Source: Alphaproteobacteria bacterium
GTDB taxonomy: Bacteria; Pseudomonadota; Alphaproteobacteria; Rs-D84; SZUA-605
Length of the DNA: 64,000 nucleotides
Assembly: GCA_031549385.1 (NCBI GenBank)
Contig: JAVBPW010000001.1
Coordinates: 390,661-454,660, forward strand
Direction of reading: 5' to 3'
In this document: piece after piece, positions 31,962-47,588 of the stretch
Position numbering within the stretch: the stretch's first letter is position 1
How the letters are laid out: every line of letters begins with the position of its first letter
Program-made: the position numbers and the translations under genes
The notes under the pieces: generated by a model
Told to the model about the DNA's origin: nothing
The model's database searches: none
Seen by the model: only the letters and a program-made list of their open reading frames with translations

Positions 31962-32086
31962 CTTTTGTAAAAGAATTTTATATAATATGTTTATTGTTGG
32001 ATTAGAAGATGAGTAGGTGTTGAGAAGAAAAAACCTCTCATTTTTTTTTGAAAAAAGATTGATATAGAACAAAGGAGTTGAAAGTT

Positions 32087-33655
32087 ATGGATTTTTCAAA
32101 GGCTATGCCAAGACCAGAATTAATTGCTATGGTGCAAACTCTTGCCGAACAAAAAGGGCTAGAGAAAGAAGTAATGTTCCAAATATTAGAAGATGCAATG
32201 TTAAAGATTGCTCGTAACCAATTTGGACATGAACTTGATTTACAAGTTATGATTGATAGAAAAACAGGAGCTATTTTAGTTAAAAGAAAAATGACTGTTG
32301 TTCCTGATGACTATGTAACAAAAACTGAAGTTATAGAAGCGCCAGATGATGGTACAGAACCTGAAATAATCGATCTTTTTAACGAAAATAGAAATTTAAC
32401 TTTAACACAAGCTAAAAAGAAAGATAAAAATCTTAAAGTTGATGATGTTGTTGAAGACTACTTACCAGCTCTTTATTTTGGAAGACAAGCTTTCCAATCT
32501 GTACGCCAAATTGTTATGGCTAAAATCAAAGGTGCTGATAGAGAAAAGCAATATGAAGAATTTAAAGATAGAATCGGCGAAGTTGTTAACTGTGTTGTTA
32601 AACAAAATGAATATGGAAACTTATATGTTGAAATAAATAATAAAGCTGAAGGATATATCAAAAGAAATGAATTAATACCAAGAGAAATGCCTCATACAGG
32701 AGATCGTTTCAGAGCTTTGGTTTTATCTGTGGAAAAATCTACATCTGGTCCTCAAATCTTTTTATCACGTTCACATCCTAATTTTATGGCAAAACTTTTT
32801 GCTATGGAAGTTCCAGAAATTTATGAAGGAACTATTGAAGTTAGAGCTGTTGCAAGAGATCCAGGGTCACATGCTAAAGTTGCTGTTTGGTCAAAAGATC
32901 CTTCACAAGATCCTGTTGGAACTTCTGTTGGTATGAGAGGTTCAAGAATCCAACCTATCATAAATGAATTGCAAGGTGAAAAAATCGACGTTATTGCTTG
33001 GTCTGATGATGTTGCGGAATTAGCTGTTAGAGCTATTACTCCTGCTAAAGCATTAAAAGTTGTTGTTGATGAAGAAGACCATAAAATTGAAATTGCTGTT
33101 GCTCAAGATAACTTGTCTCAAGCTATTGGCCGTGGTGGACAAAATGTTCGTTTGGCTTCTAAATTAGTTGGATGGCAAATCGATGTTATGAGTGAAGAAA
33201 AAGAAGCTGAAATCAGAACTAAAGAAATTAATGAAAGAATATCATTGTTTATTGCAGCTTTGGATATCGATGAAGTTATTGCAAGATTACTTTTATCTGA
33301 AGGTTTCAGAAATATTGAAGAAATTGCTTATGTTGATAAATCTGAACTTACTTCTATTAACGGTTTTGAACCTGAACTTGTTGATGAATTACAAATCAGA
33401 GCTCAAGCTTACTTGAATGCAAAACAACAAGAATTCGATAAGAAAGTAAAAGAACTTAAGATTGATAAATCTTTAATTGATTTCGAAGATGTTAATATGG
33501 ATCAAAAAATTCTTTTAGCTAATAGTGATGTTAGATCTCGTGAAGATTTAGCTGATTTATCTACTGAAGAATTACAAGCTATATTAACTGATTTAGATGA
33601 AAATCAAATTAACAAAATTATTATGAAGGCTAGAGAAATCTGGTTTAATGAATAA
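32087..33655 (+). CDS. nusA: Transcription termination/antitermination factor NusA
   Basis: S1 and KH domains ('AIGRGGQNVRLAS') and a C-terminal acidic repeat region. ATG at 32087 with AAGGAG RBS (the track start at 32078 is TTG). Confidence 0.95.
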   Translation: MDFSKAMPRPELIAMVQTLAEQKGLEKEVMFQILEDAMLKIARNQFGHELDLQVMIDRKTGAILVKRKMTVVPDDYVTKTEVIEAPDDGTEPEIIDLFNENRNLTLTQAKKKDKNLKVDDVVEDYLPALYFGRQAFQSVRQIVMAKIKGADREKQYEEFKDRIGEVVNCVVKQNEYGNLYVEINNKAEGYIKRNELIPREMPHTGDRFRALVLSVEKSTSGPQIFLSRSHPNFMAKLFAMEVPEIYEGTIEVRAVARDPGSHAKVAVWSKDPSQDPVGTSVGMRGSRIQPIINELQGEKIDVIAWSDDVAELAVRAITPAKALKVVVDEEDHKIEIAVAQDNLSQAIGRGGQNVRLASKLVGWQIDVMSEEKEAEIRTKEINERISLFIAALDIDEVIARLLLSEGFRNIEEIAYVDKSELTSINGFEPELVDELQIRAQAYLNAKQQEFDKKVKELKIDKSLIDFEDVNMDQKILLANSDVRSREDLADLSTEELQAILTDLDENQINKIIMKAREIWFNE

Positions 33656-33668
33656 GAGGTAGTAATAT

Positions 33669-36023
33669 ATGGAAGATACAAGAAAAAAATTAACTTTATC
33701 TATTAAATCTGCTCCAGTTAGCAATGCGCCTGGTGGAGTTAAGATAGAACGTAGAAGAAAAATTTTTAAGCCTGGAGAAAGTGTTGTTTCCAGTACTAAC
33801 TTGTCGTCTTCTGCTTCTGCAGAGCGATTGAAAAATATTTTAGATCAGGCGAAAAAAACTGATGAAAATAAATTAGATTTTTCTGCTCTTGATTCTAAGA
33901 GAAGAACTCTTATTGAAGAAGATAATCAAATCAGACAAGAAAGACAAAAGAAAGTCGAAAGTATTGTTGAAGAAGAAAAGAAAGAAGAAACTTCTAAACA
34001 ACCATCTCATGATTCTGGAAAAACCTTTAAAAGAACTGAAGAAGAACAACCAAAATCTTCTTTTATTAAAGAAGTGCCTAAAAACTTTAAGAAAGCAGAT
34101 AATTTTGATAAAAGAAAAATTACTGTTAAAGATATTTATGTTGATAATGGTGATGAATCAGGTGATGTTGTTGTTAGAGAAAGAAGACGCTCAATTGCAT
34201 CTTTCCAACGTAAACTTGAAAAACAACGTTTGAAAAATCTTGAAAAACAAACTGAATTAAAGCCTGTTATTAAAGAAGTTGAAATCCCTGATTTCATTTC
34301 TGTAAAAGATTTAGCGAATCGTATGTCTGTTGTTTCAGCACAAGTAGTAAAAAAATTAATGGAAATGGGTGTTATGGCTACTCTTAACCAAATTATTGAT
34401 GCCGATACTGCTCAATTAATTGTTGAAGAATTTGGTCATAAATTTAAACGTGTTGGTGAAGAAGAAACTATTGAAGGTACATTGAAAACTAAAGATGATG
34501 AAGCAACTCTAAAATCACGTCCACCTGTTGTGACTATTATGGGGCATGTTGATCATGGTAAGACTACATTATTAGATGCTTTGCGTGAAACTGATGTTGT
34601 GTCTACTGAAGCTGGTGGAATTACTCAACATATTGGTTCATATCAAATTGAAACAAAAAGTGGAAAACGAATCACTTTTATAGATACTCCTGGACACGCT
34701 GCATTCTCTGCTATGCGTGCAAGAGGTGCTAATATCACTGACATAGTTGTTTTAGTGGTTGCTGCTAATGATGGAATTATGCCACAAACAGTTGAAGCTA
34801 TTAGTCATGCTAAAGCTGCTGGAGTACCTATTATTGTTGCTATTAATAAGATTGATTTGGCAGAAGCAAATCCAACTAAAGTTAGATCTGAGTTATTAAC
34901 TCACGGGTTGGTTACTGAAGAATTTGGTGGAGATATTTTATCTGCTGAAATTTCTGCTAAGAAAAAAATGAATCTAGATAAGCTTGAAGATTTAATTTTA
35001 TTACAAGCTGAGATGTTGAATTTAAAAGCAAACCCTGATCGTAGTGCTGAAGGGGTGGTTATTGAAGCTGAAGTTGAAAAAGGATTTGGTTCTGTTGCTA
35101 CTGTTTTAATTCAAAAAGGTACTTTGAAGATTGGAGATGTTTTTGTTTCTGGTCAACAATGGGGACGTGTTAGAGCTTTAACTGATGCTTATAAAAATAA
35201 ATTAATTTCTGCTGGACCTGCTTTCCCTGTTATTGTTCTTGGATGGACTGGAAATTCTTCTGCTGGAGATGATTTTGTTGTAGTGGAAAATGAAGCAAAA
35301 GCTAGAGATATTGCAGCATATCGTGAAAAGAAATATAAAGAACATTTATTGGCTATTAAATCTAAATCTATGATGGAACAATTAATGAATGGTGTTAAAG
35401 ATGGAGATGTTAAAAAACTTACTATTTTGATTAAGGCTGACGTGAATGGATCAGCTGAGGCTATTCAAACTTCTATTATGCAAATTAAATCTGATAAAGT
35501 TAAACCTGAAGTTATTATGAGTGGGGTTGGTGAAATAAACGAATCAGATATTACTTTAGCTAAAACTGCTCGTGCTCTTGTTATTGGATTTAATGTTAGA
35601 GCTAATGCAACTGCTAAAGAATTGGCTAAACAAGAAGGAATTGATATAAGATATTATTCTATTATTTATAACTTACTTGATGATATTAAAATGGCTATGG
35701 AAGGTTTGTTAACTCCAGAAATAAAAGAAAATATTATTGGTACTGCAGATGTGCTTCAAGTATTTACAGTTGGTAAAGGAACTAAAGTTGCAGGGTGCAG
35801 AGTTGCAGAAGGTATTATTAAAAGAAATGCTAAAATACGTTTAGTTAGAGATAATATAGTTTTATACCAAGGTGAAATAGGACAAATGAAGCATGGTATG
35901 GACGATGTTAAAGAACGTAAAGAAGGCCAAGAATGTGGATTGTCATTTGATAAGTATAATGATATACAAGTGGGTGACAAAATAGAATGTTATGAAGAAG
36001 AATCAATCAAAAGTTCATTATAA
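33669..36023 (+). CDS. infB: Translation initiation factor IF-2
   Basis: G-domain '[14 protein letters not shown]', 'DTPGH', 'NKID'. Lys/Glu-rich N-terminal region. Confidence 0.95.
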
Positions 36024-36036
36024 TGGACTTGGGGCG

Positions 36037-36169
36037 CATTGAATTTTGGTTGCAAAGCAAAAGAGAAACTAAAAAATTTAACTTCACCGTATTTTAATAC
36101 GCCATCGTCAAATTTTTTAATTTACTTTTGTTTTCACTCAAAATTGAATGGTCAATGATATGTTTAAGA
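36037..36169. repeat. MITE-like intergenic palindromic repeat, copy B (subfamily 2)
   Basis: Head 'CATTGAATTTTGGTTGCAAAGCAAAAGAG', central palindrome 'CGTATTTTAATACG' flanked by inverted arms, tail 'CACTCAAAATTGAATGGTCAATGAT'. The tail is the inverted complement of the head (TIR). Confidence 0.7.
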
Positions 36170-36215
36170 AAAGTTTTTAATAAAAAATAAATATAAATTT
36201 AAAACTTAAAATTCT

Positions 36216-36860
36216 ATGAATGAAAATCAATATTATCGAATCGATGAAGGAAATCCTACTTATCTTCCTAATAAGTCTTTGAAGGTCTTTATGGAACTTT
36301 CTTCTCATAAAGGAGTTTATATCTTTAAGGAAATAGGTAAGTTTTATAAAGTAGACGTGTATGAAAAGAAATATAAAATTCTTTTTCATATTCCGGCTTC
36401 AGATGAAATGTTTCTTTATGATAAATATTCTTTGTCATATGAGAAAATTTTTGAAGGAGAAACTGGTGTTTCTTTTGAGATTAAGGAAACTTTTTATGAA
36501 GGTGGATTTTTGATAAAGAGGAATGATGAATTCTTCTTAACTAATTACTTTGCAGAAGTTACTTTGCTTGGTATGGAAGTTGGGCTTAATTGTTTTCTTA
36601 AAAAAGAGCAAAATCCAAATAAGCCGGAATTGAAGTATAAAATTTCAACAATTTATAAAGATGGTGTTGGAGAAGATCGTTGTTGCAGTTATGTTTTGGA
36701 AAAAGGATTTGTAGTTTGTAAGGATTTAAATAATCAATTACAAGTTTATCCAAGAGCTCCTGGGCAATATATTATTGAAGAAAACAATGAAATACGGGTT
36801 TATGTTTGTAAAGGTTCCTATTGGATATTGGAAAAATTCAATGTTCCAAGTAAAGAGTAA
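36216..36860 (+). CDS. Hypothetical protein (214 aa), island gene
   Basis: No signal or TM. No homology recognisable by eye. Ends at a bidirectional terminator. Confidence 0.5.
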   Translation: MNENQYYRIDEGNPTYLPNKSLKVFMELSSHKGVYIFKEIGKFYKVDVYEKKYKILFHIPASDEMFLYDKYSLSYEKIFEGETGVSFEIKETFYEGGFLIKRNDEFFLTNYFAEVTLLGMEVGLNCFLKKEQNPNKPELKYKISTIYKDGVGEDRCCSYVLEKGFVVCKDLNNQLQVYPRAPGQYIIEENNEIRVYVCKGSYWILEKFNVPSKE

Positions 36861-36863
36861 AAA

Positions 36864-36892
36864 AGCTCCCCGAAAGGGGAGTTTTTATTTTT
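36864..36892. terminator. Bidirectional intrinsic terminator (AAAAGCTCCCC-GAAA-GGGGAGTTTTT)
   Basis: Perfect hairpin with A/T runs on both sides, between convergent genes. Confidence 0.7.
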
Positions 36893-37556
36893 GTTTAGTA
36901 TTTGTTAAGAGCCATTGTTTGAATTCTACTATATCTTTTACTTCAGGAATCCAATTTAAATCTTCTGGTAAGTCTGTTGTAAATTCACAACGCATTCTTA
37001 TTGGATGAGCACCAACATTAATTGCTGCATGTTGATTATAGATTCTGTCATCTACTAGTATAGTTTCTTCAGCTTTTAATCCATATTTTTCAAAACAACT
37101 TTTTAACATATCTTCTTTTGCTGTGTCATGCATGAATTGTCTATGTTGTACGCATTCTATTGTAAGAAAATCTGTTACATCTTTTAAAAGTTCATTTAAT
37201 AGTTTCTTTTTTGTTTCTACATCAAAAGTAGCTGACATTGTGAATTGTTTGTAGCCTAATTCATTTAATTCTTTTAATGTTTCAATTACATTTGGATATA
37301 ATGGGCGATTGTTAAAGAATTCTAAACTGCTTGTAAAATCTTTATCCATTTGAGTTCCAAGTTCTGGATGAGTTTTTAATTCTAGTGCTCCATATTTTGG
37401 ACTTATTGGTAAAACTTTTGGTAGTTCTTCCCATTTAATTTTTCCATATTTATCTGAATAATTTGGATGTTTTGTTAAAAAATTAAAATATGCATAGTTT
37501 AAATTTGCTAATACTCCGTCTACATCCCAAAAAATGTTTTTTATTGTTTTTTTCAT
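36885..37556 (-). CDS. HAD-superfamily 5'(3')-deoxyribonucleotidase-like hydrolase
   Basis: HAD motif I 'IFWDVDGVLAN' (DxDGVL, as in the NT5C-type family). Downstream 'VDD' motif. Confidence 0.6.
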   Translation of the reverse strand: MKKTIKNIFWDVDGVLANLNYAYFNFLTKHPNYSDKYGKIKWEELPKVLPISPKYGALELKTHPELGTQMDKDFTSSLEFFNNRPLYPNVIETLKELNELGYKQFTMSATFDVETKKKLLNELLKDVTDFLTIECVQHRQFMHDTAKEDMLKSCFEKYGLKAEETILVDDRIYNQHAAINVGAHPIRMRCEFTTDLPEDLNWIPEVKDIVEFKQWLLTNTKQK

Positions 37557-37587
37557 GCTATTTAGTTTACCTGCTAAATTGTTATAA

Positions 37588-37950
37588 TCAATGGTTATTT
37601 AAAAACCTATAAAGTTGACTGGGTGTTAGAATCCAAAATTTCCTTATTCCTAAGATTTTCTTTATTAAGCCTACACATGAAAATCCAAAGAAGTACCATT
37701 TGGTTGATGGGCCGTAGAATTTTGTTTGTAATATTTTATATTCTTTTTTGAATTTTTTTAATGTGTCTTTTTCTTTTGTAAAGATTATTTGCGTCCAGCC
37801 TAGAAGGGGGTCTATGTATAGAAACCCTTCTTTGTTTTGTAACAATAGACTGCAATGTCTTTTTCCTTTTTTTAATGGTTTTAACATAATTAAATCACTA
37901 TCTTTAAAAAGAACATAAGCTTTTTTCCAATTACTTAGAGTTAGCTTCAT
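37588..37950 (-). CDS. Hypothetical small protein (120 aa), middle gene of the minus-strand island operon
   Basis: Overlaps the upstream ORF by 20 nt. Basic, with one hydrophobic segment 'WYFFGFSCVGLIKKILGI'. Confidence 0.45.
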   Translation of the reverse strand: MKLTLSNWKKAYVLFKDSDLIMLKPLKKGKRHCSLLLQNKEGFLYIDPLLGWTQIIFTKEKDTLKKFKKEYKILQTKFYGPSTKWYFFGFSCVGLIKKILGIRKFWILTPSQLYRFLNNH

Positions 37951-38296
37951 ATATAAATCCTTTCTTTTTGAAAATTACTGTTAGTTTATCTATGGCATCG
38001 TCCCACCATAGGGCGTGCAAAGATTCCTCTTTTATTCTGTAATCTGGAATGTAATAAAGATTTCCATATTTTGTTAATGTGTTTATATGTCGCTTTTGTA
38101 AGATACCTGCTAGGTTTAATTGTAGAACTATTTGTAAAATGTCATCAGGTGAACATGGGCGAATCGGTGAATATGAATTCTTTTCAAATCTGCTTAATTC
38201 TTGCCTTGCTTTTTGTGATCTGCAAAACCAAAACCATATTTCTTCTGCATTGTTGAATAATGTGTATCTTACTTCTTCTTGACTATGTATTTTCAT
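37931..38296 (-). CDS. Hypothetical small protein (121 aa), first gene of the island operon
   Basis: Trp-rich ('EEIWFWFCRSQKARQEL'). No recognisable domain. Confidence 0.45.
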   Translation of the reverse strand: MKIHSQEEVRYTLFNNAEEIWFWFCRSQKARQELSRFEKNSYSPIRPCSPDDILQIVLQLNLAGILQKRHINTLTKYGNLYYIPDYRIKEESLHALWWDDAIDKLTVIFKKKGFIYEANSK

Positions 38297-38451
38297 TTTG
38301 TATTTTCCCCTTCCTTATTAGAACAAAACTAGAACAAACATAACAGTGTAAAAATTAAATGTCAATATGTGAAAAGGAAAAAATTCTTTTTATTGTTGAT
38401 TTTTATCCTATAATATAGTATTACTAGAATAAAGAAAAAGAGGTATATTAT

Positions 38452-38682
38452 ATGAATCATGAACAAATATGGGTTGCTATAGATAAATTGGCTGAAATGA
38501 AGCATGTGTCTGTGTCTAGACTGGCTAGAGATGCTGGTTTAGATCCTACATCGTTTAATAAAAGTAAGAGAGTTAATTTTTGTGGGAAGAAAAGATGGCC
38601 TACTACTGAAAGCTTGGCTAAGGTGTTGGATGCAACTGGGGTTGATATTATGACTTTTGCTAAATTAGTTAATGGAAAATAA
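38452..38682 (+). CDS. Phage-repressor-like HTH DNA-binding protein (N-terminal domain only, no S24 peptidase domain)
   Basis: 'IWVAIDKLAEMKHVSVSRLARDAGLDPTSFNKSKR...RWPTTESLAKVLDATGVDIMTFAKL' resembles the N-termini of alphaproteobacterial CI/LexA-like prophage repressors. Divergent from the minus-strand operon. Confidence 0.55.
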   Translation: MNHEQIWVAIDKLAEMKHVSVSRLARDAGLDPTSFNKSKRVNFCGKKRWPTTESLAKVLDATGVDIMTFAKLVNGK

Positions 38683-38752
38683 TTTATATAAAATACTTGA
38701 CAAATAATGATTTTGTACTATATTAACAATATAAACTTAAAAAATATATAAC

Positions 38753-39028
38753 ATGAACACCAAATTTTTTATTAGGGCTCCAAAGGCTACACCATGTATT
38801 TTAATGAATTTTTTAAAATTCGTGGCAACAGATCAACCGGTTGAACAAATGATAGACGAAGGTAAGATGGATCTTAAGAAAGATTATAATCTTACTGAGG
38901 ATTTAATCATGTTCTTTGCTACTATTGTTGCTTTGAACACACCGTTGATTTTTAACGAAAGGGCAATGGAAATACTGGCTCAGAAGGAAAGCGTGCCGTA
39001 TGAGCAATTCTGTAAAATGTTTACATAA
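38753..39028 (+). CDS. Hypothetical small protein (91 aa)
   Basis: ORF followed by an intrinsic terminator about 39057-39088. Confidence 0.35.
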   Translation: MNTKFFIRAPKATPCILMNFLKFVATDQPVEQMIDEGKMDLKKDYNLTEDLIMFFATIVALNTPLIFNERAMEILAQKESVPYEQFCKMFT

Positions 39029-39088
39029 AATATAGTGTGAAAAGGTTAGTTGAGAGATAAGGTCGGAATTTACGGCCTTATTTTTTTA

Positions 39089-39439
39089 TTAAAATGCGTT
39101 TTTAATGTGTTTTGGAAGGGTGGTTTTGCTGAATGCTATGCAATCGAATCGATAGTTTGATTTTTGATATTTTGGGTTTTGCTTTATATATAAATTTGCA
39201 TTGTTTCTTATTCTTTGTTTTTGATTTTCAGATACTGAATGTAATGAATCTGACATGTTTTTCCTGAATTTAATTTCTATAAAACAAATTGTGTTTTTCT
39301 TTTTTGCGATTAGGTCTATTTCACCATTGGAACCTTTTTGACCGTGGCCGAATCGATGTTGCAATATTTCATAACCTTTTAATGCTAAGATTAACATTGC
39401 AACATATTCAGCTAATAATCCTTTTTTATTTCTTTGCAC
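39089..39439 (-). CDS. yraN: YraN-family (UPF0102) endonuclease
   Basis: 'GLLAEYVAMLILALKGYEILQHRF...GEIDLIAKKKNTICFIEIKFRKN' is the UPF0102 signature. Confidence 0.75.
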   Translation of the reverse strand: MQRNKKGLLAEYVAMLILALKGYEILQHRFGHGQKGSNGEIDLIAKKKNTICFIEIKFRKNMSDSLHSVSENQKQRIRNNANLYIKQNPKYQKSNYRFDCIAFSKTTLPKHIKNAF

Positions 39440-47470: not shown

Positions 47471-47588
47471 ATTTGAAAATTGGCTGCAAAGCAAAAAGAG
47501 TTAAAAGATTGCTTCACAATCACGTATATTAATACGCTCATGCGAAGACAACTTCCAACTTTTTAGTTTTCGCTCTATTTTGAAATGT
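47471..47588. repeat. MITE-like intergenic repeat, copy C (subfamily 2)
   Basis: 'TTGAAAATTGGCTGCAAAGCAAAAAGAG...CACGTATATTAATACGCTCATGCG...TTTTAGTTTTCGCTCTATTTTGAAATG'. Lies between convergent genes. Confidence 0.65.

Follow-up and report, generated by a model that had tools for sequence, protein, structure and literature searches.

Genes downstream of infB in an AT-rich alphaproteobacterium include a probable orphaned copy of a phage-type, DNA-damage-responsive switch built from a CI-type repressor and two uncharacterized protein families

What occupies the DNA downstream of infB in an alphaproteobacterium that lacks the expected neighbors, and which of the genes found there belong together? 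The question arises from contig JAVBPW010000001.1 of the metagenome-assembled alphaproteobacterium GCA_031549385.1. We analyzed a stretch of 64,000 nucleotides (nt) of this contig (positions 390,661 to 454,660, forward strand), called the window below, with a GC content of ∼30% overall. A preliminary description of the sequence had remarked that the usual rbfA-truB-rpsO-pnp order is missing after infB; rbfA, truB and pnp do come after infB in other Alphaproteobacteria, and no homologue of these three genes was found anywhere in the 64-kb window. The same description had read the region as an accessory island carrying a repressor-controlled three-gene operon that ends in a deoxynucleotidase. 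Judged by sequence comparison, the true unit is instead a trio in which a gene for a small helix-turn-helix (HTH) protein, H, is divergent from two overlapping genes, W and T. W and T represent two uncharacterized protein families. We consider positions 37588-38682 to be an orphaned or minimal stand-alone copy of a DNA-damage-responsive phage-type switch whose structural genes are gone, and we give this reading a probability of about 60%. The homology and order of the trio, its link to a structural gene cluster, the enrichment of a short repeat at its promoter and a terminator after T in related elements were all computed and form the basis of this reading. From these results we infer which protein would bind the repeat, what W and T may do and what the copy may do at present. 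The trio and its control elements are as follows (coordinates are those of the window).

37588-37950, minus strand: T, 120 amino acids (aa)
37931-38296, minus strand: W, 121 aa; overlaps the T gene by 20 nt
38321-38335, minus strand: SOS-box-like direct repeat GTTCTAGTTTTGTTC (GTTC-N7-GTTC), directly downstream of the -10 element of W
38337-38365, minus strand: promoter of W and T (and possibly of the HAD gene that follows), TTGACA, 17 nt, TG-TATGTT; 10 of 12 consensus matches and a TG extension
38452-38682, plus strand: H, 76-aa Cro/C1-type HTH protein

A word-indexed search with W returned only W itself, and an exhaustive HMMER search was needed to reveal its family. That search gave 250 representative homologues at E ≤ 0.001, 70 of them at E ≤ 1e-10. 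The proteins are Trp-rich and share the consensus AEEAWFWF..Q.AR..GAR...RPC.PDDI...L...HL.VL..YG...PD.R..E...LW.EA.D.L...KGIV, of which the window copy retains every invariant residue. The closest homologue lies on a 1.5-kb contig, divergent from a 209-aa full-length HTH + S24-like protein of the family of H. Loci were collected by scanning with a W alignment (41 loci from IMG/VR and 80 from metagenomes); the smaller alignment was used, the larger being too divergent. In 118 of 122 loci phmmer placed a T homologue directly after W, and a divergent H, typically 209-210 aa long with a Peptidase_S24 domain, stands upstream of W in ∼100 of the 122. The W family is unannotated. W matched no family in Pfam, PHROG, NCBIfam, PADLOC or the PDB, T matched none in Pfam, NCBIfam, PADLOC or the PDB, and literature searches found no description of the H-W-T trio or of an element linked to lysK, the gene beside which, as described below, the trio usually lies. 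No match was obtained when viral contigs were scanned with single W, T, 214-aa and 91-aa queries (the last two are neighboring orphan proteins), and W was found in none of 50,697 deposited phage genomes. Plasmids gave three distant W matches, all in other contexts. One plasmid, RHOApg of Rhodovastum atsumiense (NZ_OW485608.1; L212, 6941-7306), encodes a W homologue annotated as a "hypothetical protein", with no T, amid small early-type genes; this 55-kb record carries ParA/ParB and looks like a phage-plasmid.

The predicted structure of W consists of four helices with a mean predicted local distance difference test (pLDDT) score of 90.7. Its top fold matches were Q21, AlpA (second-best) and sigma region 4, all weak, and a BFVD fold search with W gave no match. 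By these fold matches W looks like a putative transcription factor. The weak scores agree with the position of the gene and with the logic of two switches of Pseudomonas aeruginosa, PrtR/PrtN (pyocin) and AlpR/AlpA, in which an HTH+S24 CI/LexA-like repressor is inactivated on DNA damage and a small activator, thus set free, turns on structural or lysis genes of phage origin (PMC7969949, PMC9371919). AlpA, from the alp lysis pathway, is a Q-like antiterminator (PMC7969949, PMC9371919).

The motifs G[FY]RHC, DP, TCVE.VKR.LG and TP.QLY are invariant in the T family, and they contain an invariant His...Asp/Asn...Cys pattern (H32, D/N47, C92). Within this family T of the window diverges most, with 23-36% identity to the others. 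It keeps H32, C33, D47, C92, K97, T109 and P110 and is changed at two positions, E94G and R98K. A single-sequence model of T was of low confidence (pLDDT 57). An hhalign comparison placed GFRHCF...DP of T on FYRHWAIY...HLAP of PLAAT3 (LRAT/PLAAT-like, permuted NlpC/P60) at a probability of only 2.4%, which is not significant.

H matches the Pfam model HTH_26 (Cro/C1) at 7.7e-5 and shares 52-64% identity with the N-terminal domains of HTH+S24 repressors of the COG2932 family, whose invariant GLDPTSFNKSKR...WP motif it carries. Full-length members have 210 aa, comprising the HTH and Peptidase_S24 domains, and the catalytic-serine motif G.SM is present in 74 of 77. The reading frame in the window ends at residue 76 and encodes the HTH domain only, complete. 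When the 135-aa C-terminal domains of full-length members were used in tblastn, no S24 remnant was detected in 38300-39200 or elsewhere in the window. The earlier view that this protein corresponds to the N-terminal domain of a CI/LexA-type repressor without its S24 part thus holds. The same search ruled out the adjacent 91-aa reading frame as a remnant of the S24 domain. Complete HTH-only versions of H occur also in L110, in L135 and in the lineage of L159, L162, L164, L173 and L191. The G.SM motif is missing from 3 of the 77 full-length copies, and the homologue in L089 (177-806, minus strand) has DDAFAP in place of G.SM.P; its S24-like domain may be catalytically dead. In Rhizobiales, a stand-alone HTH+S24 homologue, frameshifted in the sequences at hand (L082, 6001-6665; L083, 1020-1653), has a response regulator for a neighbor, and neither W nor T is there. 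Upstream of these Rhizobiales homologues there is no GTTC-N7-GTTC, so that the box does not simply go with H, and they share a different motif, TTATTCCT-N8-CTTTACTC.

In most other loci the trio heads a podovirus-like gene cluster of about 18 kb. A portal gene follows the trio in 71 of the 85 loci that have at least 3 kb of downstream sequence. After T come a small phrog_831 gene, a T7-type portal (PF12236), Bbp19, a T7 capsid-assembly (scaffold) protein and the capsid (PF19821), and then tubular tail proteins A and B, an internal virion protein, TerL, an endolysin-like protein, a holin and a tail fibre. As delimited in IMG/VR, the elements measure ∼18-20 kb (for example L258, 1-18472, and L213, 1-16502), and annotation of these two revealed no genes for replication or integration and no Cro-like gene. 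A relative of the tubular tail protein A is encoded on more than 520 IMG/VR contigs. The capsid shares 47% identity with its counterpart in Pelagibacter phage EXVC031P and ∼31% with that of HTVC010P. The trio adjoins the gene for class I lysyl-tRNA synthetase (lysK) in 37 of the 46 loci with enough upstream sequence, across a GC range of 31-66%. Of 61 full elements, 35 have a terminator-like hairpin with a T-run at a distance of 40-140 nt from the end of T, compared with 6 of 61 control windows, so that W and T make up an early unit of their own in these elements. The parent element may be domesticated, either gene-transfer-agent- or tailocin-like. The earlier suggestion of a prophage remnant is thereby supported for the part made up of H, W and T.

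The evidence that this unit may respond to DNA damage comes from its promoter. Of 88 unique orthologous H-W intergenic regions, 47 contain the exact GTTC-N7-GTTC box in either orientation, compared with a mean of 0.53 and a maximum of 3 in shuffled sequences. When one mismatch was allowed, the box was found in 61 of the 88 regions (shuffle mean 12). It lies at a fixed distance after TTGACA, which itself occupies a conserved position across the orthologous regions. GTTC-N7-GTTC is the SOS box of Alphaproteobacteria (Caulobacter; da Rocha et al. 2008, cited by PMC9578287). The lexA promoter of L085, a genome that bears a homologue of the HAD gene, reads TTGACA...GAACtaaagtaGAAC and contains the same motif as the box. 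On these grounds the box is likely to be a LexA site. Elements without the box have AGGA...TCCT inverted repeats around the same promoter, which are plausible operators of H. The divergent region 38297-38451, in which the preliminary description had suggested looking for operator palindromes, holds the box at 38321-38335 as a direct repeat. Among the H-W regions (L091-L210), CATGGGAACATTGTC abuts the start codon of H in 56 of 88 and TAGGAA occurs in 71 of 88, and AGGA-N6-TCCT palindromes lie over the -35/-10 elements of the W promoter. These motifs are candidate H operators and suggest a very short leader for H.

Under the proposed mechanism, the W promoter would be held off by LexA bound to GTTC-N7-GTTC over the transcription start, and in addition by H bound to its own operators. 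DNA damage, through activated RecA, would remove LexA and, in the full-length versions, the self-cleaving H as well. W and T would then be produced, and W would turn on the late genes beyond the terminator after T, by either antitermination or activation. In the present genome the late genes are absent and H has no cleavable domain. T is followed here by no terminator of its own, and the transcript most likely enters the HAD gene and ends at 36861-36886.

Several observations weigh against this reading. Judged from the window by itself, the box falls short of significance, with 2 matches against 1.08 expected, and one-mismatch SOS boxes occur across the window at background frequency; the significance of the box rests on the comparative evidence. 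There is no lexA in the 64-kb window or in the matching contig of SRR23967709, the only stretches covered. Motifs that contain GAAC (TAGGAAC, GGGAACATTGTC) are found again at other places in the orthologous intergenic regions, so that H itself might recognize GAAC-type sites. Since W is absent from deposited phages, the case for a "phage" nature of the parent element depends on what IMG/VR predicts and on its structural genes. Finally, two or more AT-rich lineages keep an intact trio without structural genes, which may point to a function of its own and not to a mere relic.

The recurrence of GAAC motifs bears on the identity of the protein that binds the box. GTTC-N7-GTTC could be an operator of H (or of W) and not of LexA, in which case the switch would be self-contained and outside the SOS regulon. 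The motif is always accompanied by H and W, the GAAC-containing motifs are found beside the start codon of H and upstream of the -35 element, and the inverted repeats of the box-less elements stand at the same place. However, the repeat has the same form as the documented alphaproteobacterial SOS box and the box of the lexA promoter. A direct repeat with an 11-bp spacing is atypical for dimers of Cro/C1 HTH proteins, and the Rhizobiales homologues of H have no such site upstream. We regard an H or W operator as improbable and prefer the prediction that LexA binds the box.

The intact trios bear on what the copy does now. HTH-only H, W, T and the exact box are found together in another AT-rich lineage, of 31% GC (L159, L173, L191), where the minimal trio lies among ftsK, a SPOR-domain gene, mscS and kdtA. 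Its proteins are not especially close to those of the window (H 52%, W 44% and T 31% identical). One explanation of the window copy is decay, in which the reading frames would be functionless leftovers of remnant DNA. The lost S24 domain, the missing structural genes and the divergence of T are consistent with decay, as is the GC content at third codon positions (GC3), which in W, T and H is mildly raised (0.26-0.27) over the window median of 0.18. On the other hand, three frames are intact at 30% GC, a composition in which stop codons readily appear; promoter, box and invariant residues have all been kept; and the same minimal architecture exists in an independent lineage. We therefore consider plain decay doubtful.

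The same facts raise the possibility that the host has kept the trio for its own use. In one version, W and T would be an SOS-induced effector or addiction pair, with, for example, a DNA-binding antitoxin-like W and a Cys-His hydrolase toxin-like T, and the module would persist by selection or addiction. Both proteins are small and their genes are translationally coupled, the overlaps being 20 nt here, 19 nt in L159 and 4 nt in L153. The product of the first gene has a putative HTH-like fold, the pair has its own terminator in full elements, and intact trios stand among housekeeping genes in the AT-rich lineages; 14 of the 85 loci have no portal gene. In the window copy the invariant residues of W and the His and Cys of T are kept. 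But no toxin-antitoxin or defence model was matched, the main context of the pair is the head of a structural operon, which suggests a regulatory role, and T of the window departs from its family at the nearly invariant positions E94 and R98. A toxin-antitoxin-like cassette had also been proposed in the preliminary description; the W-T gene layout does resemble such a pair, whereas no toxin or antitoxin family was matched in Pfam, NCBIfam or PADLOC. We think an effector or addiction pair unlikely.

In a second and somewhat less unlikely version, which we offer as a tentative extension, the trio would be a functional, host-retained switch made of two undescribed families. Its parent would be an ancient podovirus-derived particle producer of the gene-transfer-agent or tailocin kind, linked to lysK, inherited largely vertically and controlled jointly by LexA and a CI-type repressor. 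Reduced lineages rich in AT, the present one among them, would have kept the switch alone, with a non-cleavable HTH protein, for a role of their own, such as the damage-induced expression of W, T and downstream host genes. An orphaned or minimal copy of the phage-type switch remains the reading that we prefer.

The gene downstream of T in the window (36885-37556, minus strand, 223 aa) encodes a HAD hydrolase. It matches the Pfam models HAD_2 (2e-10, residues 8-184) and Hydrolase (5e-10, residues 5-181), which cover the protein over its full length, and together with motif I (WDVDGVL) these matches place it in the HAD superfamily. The proposal that it is a 5'(3')-deoxyribonucleotidase did not survive. 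Pfam NT5C (PF06941) gave no match even at E ≤ 1, NCBIfam gave generic HAD matches below threshold and none at equivalog level, and a PDB search returned weak generic HAD matches with no deoxynucleotidase structure among them. PHROG 2643 (5'-3' deoxyribonucleotidase) matched only residues 1-32, around motif I, at E 0.0023, while phrog_420, of unknown function, covers the whole protein. By its profile matches the protein is a generic, highly conserved HAD-IA-type hydrolase and not a recognizable deoxynucleotidase. One source labels a homologue "FMN phosphatase YigB (HAD superfamily)". The protein resembles the YigB- and NANP-type HAD-IA phosphatases in its full-length HAD_2 and Hydrolase matches and in the linkage of its homologues to CMP-sugar-type cytidylyltransferases; it differs from them in that its 223 aa gave no equivalog-level match.

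About 600 homologues of the HAD protein were found, the best 120 of which are 77-85% identical to it. Their genomes are much less closely related to the window than these values would imply: S2, EF-Ts, DnaX and AspRS are ∼50% identical, and YraN 33-35% identical, to the proteins of the window. The HAD protein is strongly conserved across these genomes (L084-L088, L293-L296). Its GC3 tracks each host, and in the window it is 0.13, the same as for infB. In 5 of the 6 distinct HAD contexts examined, a gene for a KdsB-like cytidylyltransferase (PF02348) is the direct neighbor or lies no more than two genes away; W and T were not found beside the HAD homologues in these contexts, and conversely a HAD homologue was found in 0 of 122 W loci. 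The adjacency of T and HAD is thus particular to this genome, and the HAD gene is not a conserved member of the module. It starts 31 nt after T with no hairpin between, so that read-through from the W-T promoter into the HAD gene is likely.

These results bear on the idea that the region is a repressor-controlled accessory operon joining two small proteins to a dNMP phosphatase, active in nucleotide-pool defence or counter-defence. In its favor, the DVDGVL of motif I resembles that of 5'(3')-deoxyribonucleotidases and gives the weak PHROG 2643 match, and co-transcription of the HAD gene with W and T is plausible here. The failure of the NT5C assignment and the contexts of the HAD homologues, mostly near a KdsB-like cytidylyltransferase and never with W or T in those examined, leave the operon unsupported, and PADLOC yielded no convincing match. 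The three-gene operon ending in HAD accordingly gives way to the H-W-T trio, and a nucleotide-pool function is largely refuted and very improbable. A defence module in general found no backing either, as PADLOC-DB 2.0 returned only a spurious HORMA match for the HTH protein (E 0.0039, 15 bits).

The remaining features around the trio are listed below. The six open reading frames (ORFs) of the preliminary description, including the 20-nt overlap, were all found where it had placed them, and both of its terminators are real.

32078-33655: nusA, followed by infB at 33669-36023
36037-36150, unstranded: imperfect palindromic repeat of 114 nt directly 3' of infB, with arms at 36037-36061 and 36126-36150
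36216-36860, plus strand: orphan ORF of 214 aa, co-directional with nusA-infB
36861-36886, both strands: bidirectional intrinsic terminator, common to the 214-aa gene and the W-T-HAD transcript
38697-38724, plus strand: promoter of the 91-aa gene, TTGACA, 16 nt, TATATT; 11 of 12 consensus matches
38753-39028, plus strand: orphan ORF of 91 aa
39046-39092, plus strand: intrinsic terminator after the 91-aa gene, a hairpin and U-run (dG -19.3, z -5.0)

The palindrome after infB, described earlier as a repeat copy, is self-complementary at 74% over 116 nt, and partial copies of it lie at 2068-2115 and 47473-47537. It is outside the switch and not a part of it. The dispersed family of palindromic repeats in the window recalls the small palindromic elements of reduced genomes. 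The terminator at 36861-36886 has a dG of -19.2 on the plus strand and -12.2 on the minus strand, with z values of -5.8 and -4.7. Beyond the terminator at 39046-39092 follow yraN, an msbA-like ABC transporter gene and xseA. An Rfam scan gave only a sub-threshold match, at a terminator.

The 214-aa, 91-aa and HAD genes are neighbors of the switch and not members of it. The 214-aa protein had no match in Pfam, NCBIfam, PHROG or PADLOC, no significant PDB match and no viral relative; it forms a singleton cluster, and its GC3 of 0.21 is usual for the window. That it could be a diverged RbfA or TruB is unsupported by family and homology searches. The 91-aa protein likewise had no family, PDB or viral match when Pfam, NCBIfam, PHROG and PADLOC were searched. 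Its gene has a GC3 of 0.37, which ties as the highest among the 65 ORFs of the window, and this value together with the near-perfect sigma-70 promoter suggests a separately acquired small gene.

Is the region then an island? No tRNA, integrase ORF or flanking direct repeats were found at it, and the bulk GC content after infB is no different from that of the rest of the window. GC3 is raised mildly in W, T and H and more in the 91-aa gene, while the HAD and 214-aa genes are typical. These features lend no clear support to an accessory island. An identical infB product and the same gene order are present in a Logan contig of SRR23967709. Among the matches listed for the infB product (IF2), the best identity was 58%, and the proteins of the window are singletons at 90% identity.

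The analysis replaces a speculative nucleotide-pool defence island with an orphaned phage-type damage switch, as we read it, beside an unrelated conserved HAD phosphatase. It also exposes two uncharacterized families, W and T, whose genes keep the same order relative to a CI-type repressor gene and an SOS-box-like site at more than 100 alphaproteobacterial loci. At present the RcGTA paradigm dominates the study of phage-derived elements in this class of bacteria. Should W turn out to be a late-gene regulator of a new class, or the parent element to be a domesticated producer of particles, the trio would be a new regulatory module for such elements.

Among known systems, PrtR/PrtN and AlpR/AlpA share with the trio the logic of a repressor and a regulator, a weak fold match of W to AlpA and, in most full elements, a terminator between the regulator unit and the late genes. 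They differ in that the sequence of W resembles none of AlpA, PrtN and Q and that the trio adds a conserved second gene, T. In addition, the trio has an SOS box superimposed on the W promoter, and in the window the repressor lacks a cleavable domain and the targets are absent. The lambdoid immunity region and its LexA-controlled induction offer a second comparison. Both arrangements have a divergent repressor and early promoter, a repressor of the S24 autopeptidase family and a place at the edge of a prophage-like element; however, the early unit of the trio is just two genes and leads straight into structural genes, and no Cro-like genes were seen (L258, L213). With the alphaproteobacterial LexA regulon the trio has in common the exact direct-repeat box at the transcription start, kept across orthologous promoters, although W and T match no curated family and LexA binding is predicted from the sequence. 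The parent elements, finally, resemble HTVC010P-type and "Hodr"-like pelagiphages in capsid sequence, T7-type portal, scaffold and tubular tail proteins. Those phages are ∼35 kb long and have no W, whereas the parent elements measure ∼18-20 kb and usually lie beside lysK.

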